Origin: Verrucomicrobiia bacterium
GTDB lineage: Bacteria > Verrucomicrobiota > Verrucomicrobiia > Limisphaerales > DASXHY01
Length of the DNA stretch: 64,000 nucleotides
Assembly: GCA_035552155.1 (NCBI GenBank)
Contig: DASZLX010000035.1
Span: 1,381-65,380, forward strand
Direction of reading: 5' to 3'
Notes under the pieces: model-generated
The model's input: the letters and a program-made list of their open reading frames with translations, nothing else
What the model was told of the DNA's origin: nothing
The model's database searches: none
Part shown: in pieces, positions 5,080-19,712 of the stretch
How the letters are laid out: each line of letters begins with the position of its first letter
Numbering within the stretch: the stretch's first letter is position 1
Position numbers and translations under genes: made by a program

Positions 5080-5125
5080 AGATGGCGTATGACATTTGTT
5101 GTATTTGGCCGCACGAATTATTGAA

Positions 5126-7303
5126 ATGCGAAGCCGGCATAAATGTTGTGGATGGCTTACGCTATTGTTTTTGCTCAACGCGGGTGTTTTGGCGAAAGCA
5201 CAGCTAACTGCAACAACCTGGAATCCCGCCGGCAATCCGACCCAGCCTTCAGACAACCTTTGGACCACTCCTGGCAACTGGAGCGGAGGCCTCGTTCCCA
5301 CCAACGGATACAAAGCGTATTTCAATGCCGGTGCCGCTCCCTGCGTCGTCAGCAACACGGTCGGCGGGTCCCAGATATCCATCGGTGATGGCGGACCGGG
5401 AGGCGTTCTCATTGTCACCAACGGCGGCAGCCTGTCTGCCGGAGACAATACCGCAGGCAATAATGACGATTACGCCTGGTCGGCCATTGGCTACAGCAGC
5501 ACCGGTGAAATGGACATCGAGAACGGCGGCTCCGTCACCTTCAACTATCATCTCTGGATCGGCCTCAATCCCGGGGCAATTGGCACGTTTAAAATGAATG
5601 GCGGAACGGCGTCGGTGGCAGGTGCGTTCGGGCTGGGCTTCAGCGGCGGCACCGGCATCGTCCAAATAAACGGTGGCACATTGACTCTTTCCCAATGGCC
5701 CGCGAACGCGATTCAAGGCACTGGCTCCGTGCTGGACATTGGCGGTGGAACGGTGGTCATTGCGGGAAATCAAGTTGCCTCTGTGAATGGTTTTACCACC
5801 AGCGGCAAAATCACTGCTTACGGAGGCACTGGCACCGTTGTATGCAACTATAACGGAACCTCCACCACCATCACCGCTACTAAAAGCAGCAACAACTCCA
5901 GCAACATCGATCTTTCCATCCAACTATCAACGCCCAATCTGATACTTTCCTGGCCGACTTCTTCTGTCTATTACGGGTTGCAATCCACTACTAACCTCAC
6001 TGCGCCGATTGTCTGGCAATCATTGACCAACTCAGTTGCCACCGCCAATGGAACCAACGAAGTCATTTTACCTTTGTCTGCAAAAGCAACTTTCTTCAGT
6101 CTCAATCATGGGGTCGATGCCACCACTATGTATGGCAAATTGTTGATGGGGTATCAGGGCTGGTTTGCCTGCCCGAGCGACGGCTCGGCCCCCAATCAAT
6201 GGTGGCATTGGTTTCACAACCAGACACCCACTGCGGCCAACGTCAATACAGATTTTCTTCCCGACACATCTGAGGACAGTCCAAACGAGCTTTTTAATAC
6301 CCAGATGACCTACTCCAACGGCAGCCCGGTTCAATTCGATTCGTCTGCCGTGCAGCAAACCGTGCTCCGTCATTTTAAATGGATGCAGGAAAATCAACTG
6401 GACGGCGTATTTCTTCAACGCTTCCTGAGCGATCTTTCCAGCCCGCAATTCTATTCCTTCCGCAATCAAGTCACCGCCAATGTCCGCGCAGGGGCGGAAG
6501 CCTACGGGCGGGTTTTTGCCATCATGTATGACGTCAGCGGTCAGTCCACTAATACTCTGGTCAACAATCTTACCAACGACTGGCTTTATCTGGTAAACAC
6601 CATGCACATTACGAACAGCACGCGCTATCTTTACCATAACGGCAAGCCGGTCGTGGCGATTTGGGGATTCGGTTTTAATGACGGAGGTCATCTGGCTTCG
6701 CCGCAACAGGCACAAACAGTAATCGATTGGTTCAAATCGCGCGGCGTCACCGTGATGGGCGGCGTGCCGACGTATTGGCGCACCCTGCAGAATGATTCGT
6801 TCACTAACACTGCCTGGACCTCCGTTTATCTTTCGTTTGATGCCATCAGCCCGTGGGCGGTTGGCCGATTTGGCAATAATGCCGGAGCCGATAATTATAC
6901 GGCGAGCATTACCATACCGGACCTCGCTGAATGCAAAACGAACGCGATTGATTATATGCCCGTGGTTTTCCCCGGCTTTTCCTGGCACAACGAGAACGGC
7001 GGCACCCTTAATCAAATTCCGCGCAACGGCGGCTCATTTTATTGGAGACAGGTTTACGATTCCGTCCATGCCGGCTGCAATATGATTTACGGCGCGATGT
7101 TCGACGAAGTGAACGAGGGAACCGCGATGTATAAACTCGTGCCATCAACGGCCCAATTGCCTGCCCAGGGCGCATTTCTGGCGCTGGACGCAGATGGCAT
7201 CACTTTGAACAGTGACTGGTATTTGCGGCTGGCAAATCAGGCTGGCAAAATGTTGCGGAAAGAAATCCCGCTGCAAACGACCATTCCCATCTCAGCGCCG
7301 TGA
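5126..7303 (+). CDS. Secreted protein: NGG-rich beta-strand-repeat N-terminal module plus a C-terminal putative glycoside-hydrolase-like (TIM-barrel-like) domain
   Basis: The ORF opens at TTG 5096, but ATG 5126 gives the signal peptide [27 protein letters not shown]-terminal repeats include [41 protein letters not shown] and [12 protein letters not shown]. The C-terminal half ([15 protein letters not shown]...WWHWF...[18 protein letters not shown]) resembles a family often annotated as glycosidase. The family assignment is from memory only. Confidence 0.55.
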
Positions 7304-10471: not shown

Positions 10472-12193
10472 ATGAACCGTTGGGCATGGTTTACAATTTG
10501 TGTTCTGCTCGGACTGCTGCTGCTTGCCGGCGGCTGGCTGATGCCCGCCCATTTGCGCGCCATCGAACCCTCCGTCCTCCAACGCGCGGGCCAAAACTCG
10601 TCCTCGCTGACCGGCCGCGGAATGGAACTCACCCACATCGGGCAATTCGGCGCGGCAGAATTGGTTTCGAGCGCCGCGACTCGCGCAAAACTTCCTTCCG
10701 CCGGAGAACTCGCCTCGTCCATTGAAACCGACGTCAAACGTCATCCCGAATGGAAAGCCTGGGGCGTCACCGGTCCGAGCTTGAGGCCTTACTACGGCTT
10801 GAGAGCTTATTTTTCCAAGGCTCCCGCGGGATCAGACGAATCGTCATTCACTGATTTTGTGGTGCGCGAACAAAACCGCACACGCGCGCTCGCTACGTTA
10901 AGCGCCTCCAAACAGCCCGCCGTTCAAGACTTGCTCCAAACCCGCACGCTGACCAACACCGTCACCTTTGCGCCCTCGCAGGCCGCAGGCGGAGAAGCGT
11001 TTGACACCGCAGTGGTCATCACCTCGCTCCTGCTGGAACAAAACCGGTTCACTCCCGCCCTCAACGATCAAATTCACTCCGCCGCTGTGCAGGCCAATCA
11101 TGGCAATCCCCAGCCGCTCGAACAAATCCTGCTCGATGTTTTATCGCTCGGCCAGCGCTTCAACTGGGGCCAGCTCGTCACCTTCGTTGGCAAAATGGAC
11201 AGCGCCGCGACGTTGCACGCCCAGGCTGATCTGGTCCGCAACGCCGGCGATCAATTGCCGGAATTGTTTTCCGCCGTGGAACTTTCGGGCAATCCGAAAG
11301 GCGTGGCCGAATATTTAAAAACCTTTCCCAAAACCGGCATGAACGACCTCACGACGGCGCTCGCCTATAACGCCGGCGGCGTGCGGGAGCTCTTGCGGAG
11401 CAACCATCGGATTTACACGTCGCCCTGGCGGCAGACGGCGTCGGAATACGAGCCGTTCGCGGGGGCGATATCGCTCGGCGCGGATTATAGCTGGCGAATG
11501 CCGGGATTTGCGCTGATATTGAAGTGGATTTTGTATTTTTGCGGCGGCCTTTTGCTCGCCCTAGCCCTGCATTTTGGCAAACCACCTGCTTCCAGTCTGG
11601 AAGCGCCATTGCAGGTTCGGGGGTTCCACGTCGCCCGCGAGATTTTGTTTGCGCTGGGTTTTCTGCTGGTCGTGCTGCTCGTGAGTGAGCCGTTTCTCGC
11701 TCAGGAAAGCCCGGCGGCGGCATTGCCGTTTCGATTGCGCGTGCCCACGGTGGGCGCCGCGGTCCTGTCAGGAAGCACCAACAACAAAACGACATTTATG
11801 GATAAATCAAATTGGCTGCCGATGCTGCTGTTTTTTGTGCTGCAGGCATTGCTCTATGTAGCCTGCATCGTGAAACTCGCCGAAATCCAACGCCAGCGGG
11901 TCGGCCCCCGCGTGAAACTGAAACTCCTCAAGAACGAAGAGCATCTTTTCGACGGCGGCCTTTATCTGGGCTTCCTCGGCACCATCGTTTCGTTCATCGT
12001 TTATTCCGTGTACGCCAAGCAACAATTCAGCCTGATGGTCGCGTACTCCTCCACCTCGTTCGGCATCCTGTTCGTGTCCTTTTTCAAAATCTTCCACCTG
12101 CGCCCGGTCAGCCGGAAGCTGTTGTTGGAAGCGGAAGCTGAATTGCCGGTTGCCACCACTCCGGTCGTTGCCTCTTCACTCGCGACACCATGA
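10472..12193 (+). CDS. Polytopic membrane protein with C-terminal ExbB/TolQ/MotA-like channel helices (candidate motor stator A-subunit)
   Basis: 573 aa with about six hydrophobic helices (near residues 5-24, 344-366, 389-410, 448-470, 497-517 and 523-545) and a roughly 320-aa soluble region after helix 1. LYLGFLGTIVSF (nt 11960-11995) resembles the ExbB/TolQ/MotA motif P-L-L-G-L-L-G-T-V-x-G. AYSSTSFGILFV (nt 12041-12076) resembles the following A-L-x-T-T-x-x-G-L helix. The CDS call is strong. The functional call is motif-level only. Confidence 0.5.
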   Translation: MNRWAWFTICVLLGLLLLAGGWLMPAHLRAIEPSVLQRAGQNSSSLTGRGMELTHIGQFGAAELVSSAATRAKLPSAGELASSIETDVKRHPEWKAWGVTGPSLRPYYGLRAYFSKAPAGSDESSFTDFVVREQNRTRALATLSASKQPAVQDLLQTRTLTNTVTFAPSQAAGGEAFDTAVVITSLLLEQNRFTPALNDQIHSAAVQANHGNPQPLEQILLDVLSLGQRFNWGQLVTFVGKMDSAATLHAQADLVRNAGDQLPELFSAVELSGNPKGVAEYLKTFPKTGMNDLTTALAYNAGGVRELLRSNHRIYTSPWRQTASEYEPFAGAISLGADYSWRMPGFALILKWILYFCGGLLLALALHFGKPPASSLEAPLQVRGFHVAREILFALGFLLVVLLVSEPFLAQESPAAALPFRLRVPTVGAAVLSGSTNNKTTFMDKSNWLPMLLFFVLQALLYVACIVKLAEIQRQRVGPRVKLKLLKNEEHLFDGGLYLGFLGTIVSFIVYSVYAKQQFSLMVAYSSTSFGILFVSFFKIFHLRPVSRKLLLEAEAELPVATTPVVASSLATP

Positions 12194-13614
12194 ATCGCAG
12201 CATCCTGATCGTCATCTGCGACTTCCTGCTCGTCAGTCTGTTGATTTTTTCGACCCCGGACCCGAGCAAGGTGATGGGCAATAACGGCGACACCGCCGCG
12301 CCCACGGCCGTCGCCACGAACGCCCCCGCTGCCAGCGCCGGCAAGGACCTCGCTGCCGTCATGCGCACCGCCCTGACCGAGGAACAACAGAAGCGCGAGC
12401 AACTGCAAGGCGAATTGGAGAAAACCCGCCAGGCAGCCGCGCAACAACAATCGCAATTGAGCGAAAATGAAAAACGCGCGCAGGCCCTCCAACAGGAGCA
12501 GACGAATCTCAAGGAGCAATACGCCGCCGCCCAGACAAATATCGGCGCGTTGAACCAACAATTAAACGCCCGCTCCACCGAAGCGACGCTTTCGAAGGAG
12601 CAACTCGCCGCCTTGCAGGCCGACATGCAGAAACAGGAGGACCAGGCCGCGGCGCTCAAGAAACAACTCGCTGACTTGGAAAAAGCCAACCAGGCCGCCG
12701 TCGCCGACCGCGAGCGATTGACTAATCAGCTCCAAATGGCCGACCTCGAGCGACGCCAGGCCGCCGAGCAGGCCGCCCAGGCGCAGGAGCAGGTGCAATA
12801 TGAGCGCCAGGAAAAAGCGCGCATCGAACAACAGGCCGCCAAGCTCGCCGAAGGCGTGAAATCCCTGGCCACCAATTCCAGCGCGCTCGCCCAGGAAATT
12901 CGCGAGAACCGCCCGCTCGCCTCCAATACGATTTTCAACGATTTCGTCACCAATGCGGTGGACGTCCAATTCACCGCCACCCGCCCCGGCTTCTTCGGTG
13001 GCGATGCGACCAAAGAAAAGGTCACCAAAACCGTCCTCGTCACCGACGGCACGAATACCTTCGCCATGTGCCATGTGCAGGACACGCCCCTGACCTTCTG
13101 GGTTCCTGCGACCGACTGGGATGGTCTGACCGGCACCTTGCGGCACGATGGCAGCCAGATTTCTCTGGGTTCGCTGTCCTTCTCGCAGCCCGATCCGCGC
13201 GTGGTCATGTTGCCCATCAAACCCACCGACGCGAGCCGGCTCGGCACCAAAATTTATCACGTCTCGCCGGACCCGTTCAAATTTCAGGACGCCGTGCTCG
13301 TGGGCGCGCAGGAAGGTTATTATGGCGAGTGCAAATTCCAGATTGATGTGAAAACGCCCGATTACGTGAAACTGGACCGCAGTCTCATCAAAGGATTGTT
13401 TGGCAAATTCAATCCTTCACGCGGCGATTTGGTTTTCAGCCGCACTGGCGAATTGCTCGGCATCATGGCCAACGACACTTACTGCTTGGTGATTCGCAAG
13501 TACGATTCGAACGCCACCTTCCAACTCGGCCAAAGCATGCGTTCCCAATATCTCGCCGACACACTCTCGCGCTTTTACGTGTCAATCCAGAGATTGCCCC
13601 CCGAATTGCAGTAG
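12190..13614 (+). CDS. ExbD/TolR-like Asp-containing TM anchor, long coiled coil and C-terminal globular domain (candidate motor B-subunit)
   Basis: 474 aa. The start overlaps the upstream stop (ATGA at 12190-12193). The N-terminus MNRSILIVICDFLLVSLLIF has an Asp (D11, nt 12220-12222) inside the only TM helix, as in ExbD/TolR/MotB. Residues about 60-235 are Q/E/A/K-rich heptad-like sequence. The C-terminal domain of about 230 aa carries AMCHV and NPSRGDLVFSRTGELLGIM motifs. Confidence 0.5.
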   Translation: MNRSILIVICDFLLVSLLIFSTPDPSKVMGNNGDTAAPTAVATNAPAASAGKDLAAVMRTALTEEQQKREQLQGELEKTRQAAAQQQSQLSENEKRAQALQQEQTNLKEQYAAAQTNIGALNQQLNARSTEATLSKEQLAALQADMQKQEDQAAALKKQLADLEKANQAAVADRERLTNQLQMADLERRQAAEQAAQAQEQVQYERQEKARIEQQAAKLAEGVKSLATNSSALAQEIRENRPLASNTIFNDFVTNAVDVQFTATRPGFFGGDATKEKVTKTVLVTDGTNTFAMCHVQDTPLTFWVPATDWDGLTGTLRHDGSQISLGSLSFSQPDPRVVMLPIKPTDASRLGTKIYHVSPDPFKFQDAVLVGAQEGYYGECKFQIDVKTPDYVKLDRSLIKGLFGKFNPSRGDLVFSRTGELLGIMANDTYCLVIRKYDSNATFQLGQSMRSQYLADTLSRFYVSIQRLPPELQ

Positions 13615-15264: not shown

Positions 15265-15807
15265 TCAAGATTCCACGACACATCGCTCCGGATACGCGCG
15301 CGCGTAAGTAATCCAATAGTGCATCAGCCCATGATCTCGCCATTGCTCGAGCAATCTCCACATGCGTTCGGTGAGCGGGTCGATTTGTTTCTGGATCCCG
15401 GTTTCCTCGAGCCAATCGTGGGCGTCCGCTGAATCGGAGCTTTCATTTTGCGCGAAGGTTTGAAGTTCATCCCACCTCGGCCTCAAAATCGCAAATGCGG
15501 CATCAAAAAGTTCCGCCGCTTCGATCGCTCCCAATTCCCGCAGGCCGTTGCTGGTTTCCGCGCACAAATCCAAATCATGCCAATTTACAAAATGCCACGC
15601 CAGATCATCCAGGGCCATGCTGATGTCCAGTTCGAAAGTGGCAGCCATGGCGCGCATTCCGCGAGGGGCGTTCTGGAGTCGCGAAAGAAAAACGACATCG
15701 TCTCGGCGTGAGGCCGGCGGAAACCACTCATTCAATTCCCCCTGCAGGAGCCGCAGAATATCCTCGTCCAACCGTGCTTTACGAAGTTGGGCAATCGTCA
15801 ACGCCAT
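15265..15807 (-). CDS. Hypothetical cytoplasmic protein (weak DUF4375/DMP19-like resemblance)
   Basis: 180-aa acidic ORF with normal codon usage. The segment GMRAMAATFELDISMALDDLAWHFVNW...GLRELGAIEAAELFDAA loosely recalls the DUF4375 pattern. The assignment is tentative. Confidence 0.5.
   Translation of the reverse strand: MALTIAQLRKARLDEDILRLLQGELNEWFPPASRRDDVVFLSRLQNAPRGMRAMAATFELDISMALDDLAWHFVNWHDLDLCAETSNGLRELGAIEAAELFDAAFAILRPRWDELQTFAQNESSDSADAHDWLEETGIQKQIDPLTERMWRLLEQWRDHGLMHYWITYARAYPERCVVES

Positions 15808-17159: not shown

Positions 17160-19712
<2,553 letters not shown>

Follow-up and report, generated by a model that had tools for sequence, protein, structure and literature searches.

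Ion-driven motors of 5:2 stoichiometry, that is, the flagellar stators, the Ton and Tol systems, the motors of gliding and type IX secretion, and Zorya, are to our knowledge the only route by which bacteria carry energy from the inner membrane to the outer envelope, and each branch newly recognised so far has, as far as we know, uncovered a new process. ExbB and TolQ carry one conserved threonine in the second transmembrane (TM) helix (ExbB T148, TolQ T145) and another in the last TM helix (ExbB T181, TolQ T178), and the TM helix of TolA and TonB, which has an S-H-L-S motif and a conserved histidine, binds to the outside of the motor. Here we analyzed a pair of adjoining genes, A and B, in a stretch of 64,000 nucleotides (hereafter the window) from a Verrucomicrobiia bacterium of the Limisphaerales (assembly GCA_035552155.1, contig DASZLX010000035.1, positions 1,381 to 65,380 of the forward strand). 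A preliminary description, made from the sequence alone, had proposed that the two genes encode an undescribed motor spanning the envelope. We found that A and B form an autonomous, strictly co-conserved and translationally coupled module, whose second protein starts with a TM helix carrying an invariant aspartate; that the pair as a whole is a motor is plausible, not proven.

The nearest published concept to A-B is that of the TolQ-like/TPH-vWA transducers (PMC12204202, Mol Biol Evol 2025), which are predicted TolQ-like pentamers with an axle made of an Asp-bearing transpore helix, a linker and a vWA effector, and which occur without a tolR gene in Proteobacteria and Verrucomicrobia. A-B shares with them a non-TolR/ExbD axle, in which an Asp helix is joined via a linker to a periplasmic effector, the lack of a separate tolR/exbD gene and the occurrence in Verrucomicrobia, and both systems are predictions only with no phenotype known. 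The partner in the TPH-vWA systems, however, is a recognisable TolQ homologue, whereas A is a sequence orphan, which combines six TM helices with a periplasmic head. Those systems have a vWA effector, a disordered or proline-rich linker and usually heterologous gene pairs, whereas here a single B gene supplies a coiled coil of ~190 residues and a head of the HtrA fold. In view of these predicted Asp-helix-effector axles, the earlier statement that the pair matches no known stator architecture has to be moderated. A 2025 survey of MotAB homologues, built on detectable sequence homology, does not mention the architecture of A-B.

The two genes and their junction are arranged as follows.

10472..12193, + strand: gene A, 573 residues, the proposed channel or stator subunit, a polytopic inner-membrane protein (open reading frame and homologues; no family match)
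12190..12193, + strand: ATGA stop/start overlap of the two reading frames, translational coupling of A and B (the window and 70 of 79 related loci)
12190..13614, + strand: gene B, 474 residues, the proposed axle and transducer, a bitopic protein (open reading frame, homologues and position behind A)

The original sequence observation, namely the open reading frames (ORFs), the overlap, the motifs, the TM helices, the coiled coil and the protease-like fold, was confirmed: the two closely spaced C-terminal helices singled out in A are encoded by nucleotides 11960-11995 (LYLGFLGTIVSF) and 12041-12076 (AYSSTSFGILFV), and protein B begins with MNRSILIVICDFLLVSLLIF.

Homologues are numerous (1226 of A and 2261 of B in a protein database clustered at 90% identity), and those that are named are all ‘hypothetical’ and all from Verrucomicrobiota; none of the sources searched gives a name to either protein, and our literature search found no paper on the family. 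A genome scan detected relatives in 179 species, and the synteny counts given here come from the 80 loci retrieved. B lies behind A on the same strand in 78 of these 80 loci and the contigs of the other two end ~110 bp past A, that is, B follows A in 78/78 scorable loci. The 4-nucleotide overlap is kept in 70/79 loci, and in all the remaining ones but one the genes are 2-6 nucleotides apart. This co-conservation extends beyond close relatives. Among 1.84 billion representatives searched, the A family comprises 795 cluster representatives at 50% identity, 354 of them at E<=1e-30, and the full-length architecture is unchanged down to 25% identity among the representatives listed. Behind one A relative of 27% identity a B-like gene starts 8 bp further on, with MNRSLLLVVCDFLLLSLL; the relatives of this A are Opitutales (Puniceicoccaceae, Opitutus, Lacunisphaera and Oleiharenicola), and the divergent Opitutales loci keep the A-B pair with different neighbours. 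The pair thus ranges over at least the Limisphaerales and the Opitutales within the Verrucomicrobiota. A conserved third component was sought and ruled out, since no other gene family recurs in more than 11/81 loci.

In the window, the upstream neighbour is a GH63-like hydrolase gene on the minus strand (divergent) and the downstream neighbour an MFS transporter gene, also on the minus strand (convergent), so that A-B is a stand-alone two-gene unit. As had been noticed before, no TonB, TolA, TolB, Pal or other Ton or Tol gene, nor any flagellar, Zorya or gliding gene, adjoins the pair according to the ORF list and the PADLOC and Pfam scans of the window. Scans for promoters and terminators at the locus gave a signal no higher than that of shuffled sequence.

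The most conserved part of either protein is the N-terminal helix of B, followed by three further parts.

12196..12255, + strand: N-terminal TM helix of B, residues 3-22 (alignments and AlphaFold2)
12256..12336, + strand: linker of B, residues 23-49, disordered, variable and rich in Pro, Ala and Thr (predicted local distance difference test score, pLDDT, below 50)
12337..12909, + strand: coiled-coil stalk of B, residues 50-240 (AlphaFold2 helices 50-130 and 136-240)
12916..13611, + strand: C-terminal HtrA/DegS-like trypsin-fold domain of B, residues 243-474 (Foldseek, residue counts and constant length)

The helix has the motif N-[KR]-[ST]-x5-C-D11-F-L-L-x-[SN]-L-L, with Arg or Lys at position 3. 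Its aspartate at position 11 (codon 12220-12222) is invariant in both homologue sets, the close one (117/117) and the wide one that covers both orders (94/94), CDFLL is nearly invariant, and residues 10-18 have a mean column entropy of only 0.28 bits, which no segment of A or B undercuts. The helix is conserved on every face, as would be expected if the inner helices of A enclose it fully, whereas an anchor exposed to lipid or a signal peptide would not show such a pattern. The predicted topology of B, with a cytoplasmic N-terminus, a single TM helix and the aspartate towards the cytoplasmic side, bears out the single helix with an embedded Asp that had been read from the start of the protein.

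The domain layout of B was taken from an AlphaFold2 model (mean pLDDT 76.3), which puts the TM helix at residues 3-20 and the disordered linker at 21-49. The Q/E/A/K-rich coiled coil, previously put at ~180 residues, is the stalk of residues 50-240. The distance between the TM helix and the head falls into clusters of ~209, 217, 224, 231 and 237 residues across the family, which are roughly heptad steps and therefore typical of a real coiled coil under length constraint, and the length of the head is constant at 233-235 residues. If the stalk is an extended parallel dimer, we estimate its length at ~28 nm (1.5 Å per residue). The matches of B in Pfam, NCBIfam and PADLOC were coiled-coil and TM noise alone, including an NCBIfam TolA match that reflects composition alone (18 bits, the cut-off being 59), and a search of the PDB with a B profile gave coiled-coil noise only. 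Two families listed for some B homologues (P0131, P0143, P0144 and others) were also rejected as coiled-coil artefacts: PF24161 was not reproduced by direct hmmscan at E<=1, and PF19220, the crescentin rod, is far below threshold.

Protein A was analyzed by hydropathy and with an AlphaFold2 model (mean pLDDT 78.7), which together give six TM helices (residues 3-23, 344-369, 385-405, 445-474, 495-514 and 521-556). Its parts are the following.

10484..10543, + strand: TM1 of A, residues 5-24, a poorly conserved anchor or signal-like helix (mean column entropy 2.65 bits)
10547..11500, + strand: periplasmic all-alpha domain of A, residues 26-343 (AlphaFold2 pLDDT ~90)
11501..11875, + strand: TM2-TM4 of A, residues 344-468 (AlphaFold2 and alignment)
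11876..11953, + strand: cytoplasmic loop of A, residues 469-494, K/R-rich and ending in the near-invariant LLxNEExLFD
11954..12013, + strand: TM5 of A, residues 495-514, with the motif G-L-Y-x-G-x-x-G-T504 (hhalign against TM2 of TolQ/ExbB)
12032..12139, + strand: TM6 of A and its cytoplasmic extension, residues 521-556 (mean column entropy 1.00 bits)

TM1 ends at an invariant P25, and the large soluble domain that had been seen behind it is an all-alpha domain of ~320 residues between TM1 and TM2, for which neither Foldseek (best E 0.87) nor Pfam gave a match. The Arg/Lys-rich loop described ahead of the last two helices was found at residues 468-491 with 7 K+R, and the last hairpin is predicted to run in-out-in, which together with the N-in helix of B corresponds to the topology of ExbB/ExbD.

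Conservation in A rises towards its C-terminus. The mean column entropy is 1.00 bits in TM6, the most conserved helix of A, 1.32 in TM5, 1.76 in TM4, 2.45-2.65 in TM1-TM3 and 2.63 in the periplasmic domain, that is, the outer helices, including the variable TM2 and TM3, vary as much as the periplasmic domain does, as would be expected if A encloses the helix of B. The gradient as a whole, from the B helix through TM6, TM5 and TM4 to TM1-TM3, agrees with an axle that is enclosed by inner helices lining a pore. In TM4, F454 and Q458 are invariant, Y462 is nearly so (109/121) and K468 is K or R; TM5 has Y498, G500 and G503 as practically invariant residues and either T or S at position 504 in 120/121; and TM6 has the conserved residues Y525, S527, T528, G531, I532, K539 and R544, with T528, which lies within S-T-x-F-G-I, being T in 102, N in 15 and S in 3 of 121. 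Judged by position along the helices, Q458/Y462, T504 and Y525/S527/T528 probably lie at roughly the membrane depth of Asp11. E406-P407 marks the periplasmic end of TM3, and K351, near the periplasmic side, is the sole conserved basic residue in the TM helices of A.

We then compared both proteins by hhalign with reference profiles made from E. coli ExbB/ExbD and TolQ/TolR together with 78 TolQ and 67 TolR sequences from metagenome loci. With narrow alignments the best local matches set T504 against TolQ T145 and D11 against TolR D23, at a probability of only 1-3% (2.7% for the D11-D23 alignment). When the diverse A alignment was used, a longer C-terminal segment matched TM2 of TolQ/ExbB at a probability of 55% (P 1.2e-4) and TM5 alone at 81% (P 1.2e-5), aligning its motif GLYvGl-GTv with TolQ 137-148 (PYIGLFGT145V). 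No column-shuffled control reached these scores (0/150 for TM5 alone, 0/200 for the longer segment), and a reversed control scored 14.8 against 32.8. The pattern Y-x-G-x-x-G-T-[VI] occurs 81 times in 1.13 million six-frame residues, every time in an A gene, and the stricter Y-[VILM]-G-x-x-G-T-[VI] has zero background matches in the same residues. One short, genuinely unusual motif thus ties A to the pore helix of ExbB/TolQ, and membership of the family is not established.

The arrangement around this motif also resembles the known motors. As with ExbB-ExbD as well as TolQ-TolR, the gene of the proposed channel subunit precedes that of the Asp-helix subunit in tight coupling, and E. coli motA-motB likewise form an operon with a 4-nucleotide overlap. 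The pattern shared with TM2 of TolQ/ExbB sits on the penultimate TM helix of A, a Thr/Ser is found on the last helix as well, and a K/R-rich cytoplasmic segment precedes the hairpin. Like ExbD/TolR, B crosses the membrane once, by an N-in helix whose cytoplasmic third bears an invariant Asp, and an acidic or charged residue on the B helix would face threonines on the A helices as in MotA-MotB, PomA-PomB, ZorA-ZorB and GldL-GldM. The long helical stalk with a C-terminal globular head is like TolA in layout, and as an elongated element that may pass on motion it is comparable to the ZorA tail and the periplasmic stalk of GldM.

Many results nevertheless weigh against counting A and B among the MotA/ExbB and ExbD/TolR relatives, or against a motor of this kind. 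The profile searches proposed with the preliminary description, with MotA_ExbB (PF01618) and ExbD (PF02472), came out negative: at E<=10 Pfam gave no MotA/ExbB match when the whole of A, C-terminal fragments of it and each of 88 diverse A members were scanned, and no ExbD/TolR/MotB match for whole B, its fragments or each of 55 diverse B members. NCBIfam and PADLOC, at the same limit, gave no match to MotA/ExbB/TolQ/ZorA or ExbD/TolR/MotB, and no PomA or GldL model matched either; PDB profile searches with narrow and wide A profiles returned no ExbB, TolQ, MotA, GldL or ZorA chain. Foldseek of A against the PDB, run on a whole-chain monomer model in which the periplasmic domain dominates, gave a best E of 0.87 with a TM-score of 0.14 and listed no ExbB, TolQ, MotA, PomA, GldL or ZorA, and an unfiltered HMMER rank test, for which TolQ-core and TolR-TM profiles were used, placed A and B no higher than neighbouring proteins. 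The similarity of A to TolQ/ExbB is restricted to one segment of ~12 residues: TM6 matches TM3 of TolQ at chance, its score being reached by 93/150 shuffles, and TM4 is at chance as well in the shuffled controls. By eye STxFGI in TM6 resembles A-T-A-I-G-L, but the extended alignment sets Y525, not T528, opposite T178. The wide alignment of the B N-terminus is likewise at chance against TolR/ExbD (48/200 shuffles reach the score). The P-value of TM5 is partly post hoc, because the same motif had drawn attention in the preliminary description, and would not be significant if scaled to a search of ~25,000 families. Moreover, A is almost without cytoplasmic mass, its loops having 25 residues or less, unlike ExbB/MotA, and the two threonines are 33 residues apart in ExbB/TolQ but 24 in A.

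Other differences concern the architecture. ExbB/TolQ have three TM helices and A has six; the large extra domain of A is periplasmic, not cytoplasmic, and the cytoplasmic torque-generating domain of MotA is absent. Unlike in the Ton and Tol systems, one protein, B, would carry the TolR-like and the TolA-like roles, and its helix has an Asp but neither the His nor the S-H-L-S motif of TolA/TonB. As had been recognised at the outset, B lacks both the ExbD-type periplasmic domain and the OmpA-like peptidoglycan-binding domain of MotB/PomB, and its periplasmic part consists of the coiled coil and the HtrA-like fold. The proposed resemblance of the two A helices to the ExbB/TolQ/MotA signature pair thus exceeds chance for TM5 but not for TM6, and the B helix has the N-in orientation and the invariant Asp11 in common with ExbD/TolR/MotB, while its sequence similarity to TolR is at chance; homology of A to MotA/ExbB is only partly supported.

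The head of B showed the clearest relationship to a known fold. The Foldseek matches of the predicted model include 3mh4_B, Deg1, DegS, Deg2, Deg9 and HtrA1 (E 2e-7 to 1e-3, probability 1.0), that is, to the chymotrypsin-like two-barrel fold, with residues 257-445 forming the beta-rich part in the AlphaFold2 model; the globular protease-fold domain of ~230 residues suspected earlier is therefore of the HtrA/DegS type. In contrast to the HtrA family, ~190 residues of coiled coil separate the membrane anchor from the fold, and there is no PDZ domain, the chain ending one helix past the fold. Pfam Trypsin and Trypsin_2 did not match the isolated head or any of 55 B members even below threshold, and an hhalign comparison of the C-terminal domain with DegS/DegQ fell short of significance and was unreliable in register, so that the triad assignment rests on motif context and spacing. 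The candidate triad H295/D335/S410 is complete in the window protein. In its clade, the Limisphaerales, H295 and D335 are found in 117/117 and S410 in 113/117, the context FNPS-RGDLVFS-x2-GELLGIMAN resembles GNSGGALVN-x2-GELIGINT of DegS/DegQ with its GELxGI strand past the Ser, and the Asp-Ser spacing of 75 residues equals that of E. coli DegS and DegQ. Across the wide family H295 (88/94) and D335 (92/94) are kept, but S410 is present in only 47/94; position 410 is Lys in 37 and Arg in 5 (42/94 together), including many Opitutales, and the alternative S417 is Ser in 65/94 and Ala in 25, some members having neither candidate serine. Catalysis is therefore not universal and at least part of the family consists of pseudoproteases. 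Universal protease activity is ruled out by the non-conserved serine, which leaves binding as the role that the head has kept; judging from these residues, catalysis would be clade-specific, if it occurs at all.

It is possible, if somewhat short of an even chance, that A and B form a proton-coupled complex working in the manner of ExbBD/TolQR, in which TolR-like and TolA-like roles come together in B. In such a complex A and B would be obligate partners in the inner membrane, and the N-terminal helix of B would be enclosed by several A subunits, with TM5 and TM6 inside, TM4 behind them and the variable TM1-TM3 facing lipid. Asp11 would lie roughly a third of the way along, counted from the cytoplasmic face, within a polar ring formed at similar depth by Thr504 (TM5), Gln458/Tyr462 (TM4) and Ser527/Thr528 (TM6). 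By analogy with ExbB-ExbD, TolQ-TolR, MotA-MotB and TPH-vWA, protons moving down the proton-motive force would protonate and deprotonate Asp11, and this cycle would drive a movement, probably a rotation, of the B dimer relative to the A ring. The Asp helix of B would then take the role of TolR/ExbD, and the stalk of ~190 residues with the head that of TolA/TonB; the ~320-residue alpha-helical periplasmic domain of A would surround the stalk at its base like a collar. The target bound by the HtrA-fold head would be periplasmic or belong to the peptidoglycan or the outer membrane, and in the Limisphaerales, where His-Asp-Ser survives, the head may also cleave it. More tentatively, A-B may be a sequence-orphan branch of the ion-driven 5:2 motors, with a rotating coiled-coil axle and a protease-fold head. 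The physical complex and its target, the 5:2 stoichiometry, the ion coupling and the rotation are all inferred, and for a pentamer of A around a dimer of B the conservation gradient gives indirect support only.

The alternative that survives best, which we consider rather unlikely, is a complex that is not a motor, in which B would be an HtrA-like protease or pseudoprotease, anchored in the membrane and tethered by its coiled coil, and A its dedicated scaffold, regulator or substrate presenter. Asp11 would then be a static polar contact that locks the B helix into A, the TM5 motif a convergent packing of small residues and Thr, and DegS with RseA/RseP, EnvC with FtsX or FtsH with HflKC may serve as analogues. 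Like DegS, B combines the HtrA fold with an N-terminal membrane anchor, and the Limisphaerales residues with their DegS/DegQ spacing fit such a protease, but the Lys/Arg at position 410 and the members with neither serine mean that proteolysis is not the conserved function. All family-level tests for MotA/ExbB or ExbD membership being negative fits this alternative too, yet the TM5 similarity exceeds all shuffles. The extra mass of A is periplasmic and might serve as a dock for the protease head, should the coiled coil fold back, and the monomer model of B indeed breaks the stalk helix at 131-135, with weak Foldseek matches of the stalk to antiparallel hairpins (YscO, Rad50). A merely docking anchor, however, should be conserved on one face, whereas the B helix is conserved on all of them, and an invariant unpaired acid in the middle of the membrane would be costly without a function, K351 of A being situated towards the other, periplasmic side.

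A transporter or channel, in which A itself moves an ion or a lipid-linked substrate and the helix of B lends an ionisable residue without mechanical coupling, appears improbable. Six TM helices, conserved polar residues clustering in TM4-TM6 (Q458, Y462, T504, Y525, S527 and T528) and conserved cytoplasmic loops would suit it, but A matches no transporter family in sequence or structure, and the heptad-constrained stalk and the constant-size head of B would have no obvious role. Neighbours of MacAB-type exporter and phospholipid-synthesis function in one sub-clade point in the same direction, but that association is found in only ~11/81 loci.

That the B N-terminus is a cleaved signal peptide or a lipoprotein signal, so that B would be soluble or lipid-anchored in the periplasm, have no partner inside the membrane and be paired with A merely in the operon, is very improbable and was ruled out: one database source names a B homologue ‘conserved exported hypothetical protein’ and Cys10 (91/94) with Asp11 resembles a +1/+2 pair, Asp at +2 being an inner-membrane retention signal, but residues 1-21 are invariant over 47 sequences that average 61% identity, unlike signal peptides, which are not conserved in sequence, ~10 hydrophobic residues follow Cys10, Ile at -1 fits a lipobox poorly, and intact B homologues have Ser or Phe at position 10.

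Several observations were made on the surroundings of the pair. In one Limisphaerales sub-clade (L031, L070 and ~9 more loci) the region 1.4-6 kb upstream of A contains, on the strand of the pair, a MacA/HlyD-like gene, a MacB-type ABC ATPase gene, two genes for FtsX-type permeases and one that is CDP-alcohol phosphatidyltransferase-like, and an M50 site-2-protease-like gene (HEFGH...LDGG) lies ~3.7 kb downstream on the opposite strand; since this arrangement occurs in only ~11/81 loci and is absent from the window, it probably reflects clade synteny. In the Opitutales loci L169 and L170 (9435-15854) A-B is directly followed by a hemN-like gene together with a flagellar cluster (flgN, flgK, flagellin, flbT and flaF), a flagellar association seen in no other locus, and a peptide deformylase gene is divergent upstream of A in L169, L170 and L167. 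TolQ/ExbB homologues were sought in the 80 Verrucomicrobiota loci, and the sole find was one MotB/OmpA-like ORF (L035:4883-5689, + strand; phmmer E 6.7e-8 against E. coli MotB), ~300 bp upstream of A in 1/80 loci; a scan of viral contigs for TolQ/ExbB found none. A defence island or mobile element was ruled out as a reading of the locus, given the lack of a PADLOC match, the housekeeping genes that surround the pair and its changing context.

In the window itself, GC skew is negative in nearly all 2-kb bins of positions 1-64000 and the cumulative skew goes steadily down to -2.3, so that the whole window appears to sit on one replichore; the A-B locus is no compositional island in this profile. 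Other genes in it include the following.

5096..7303, + strand: ORF of 735 residues that starts with TTG and has a signal-like N-terminus; its N-terminal half is repetitive and rich in Gly, Thr and Asn; Pfam gave nothing at E<=0.001; at the 3' end it shares 12 nucleotides with the end of the convergent GH63-like gene
15265..15807, - strand: DMP19-like protein of 180 residues (PF14300, E 1.6e-6), on the strand of ruvB and immediately downstream of that gene
17160..19712, + strand: H+-translocating pyrophosphatase (PF03030, E 1e-174) with an N-terminal extension of ~60 residues that has a signal-like hydrophobic stretch ahead of the PF03030 match

A-B is widespread, with ~800 clusters at 50% identity from two or more orders of a phylum that dominates in the environment, and is invisible to current annotation. 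If the pair is a motor, the family of such machines would extend to a six-TM stator with a periplasmic, not a cytoplasmic, superstructure, proton flow would be coupled to a protease-fold effector, which has not been described before, and surveys of such motors that are based on profiles would overlook whole branches. These bacteria would then possess a machine, powered by protons, with which to reach and grip a target at the peptidoglycan or the outer membrane and, in some lineages, to cut it. If it is not a motor, A-B remains a highly conserved complex of the envelope, so far undescribed and built on a buried aspartate, and the function of this aspartate is directly testable because a cultured carrier, Oleiharenicola sp. 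Vm1, exists.

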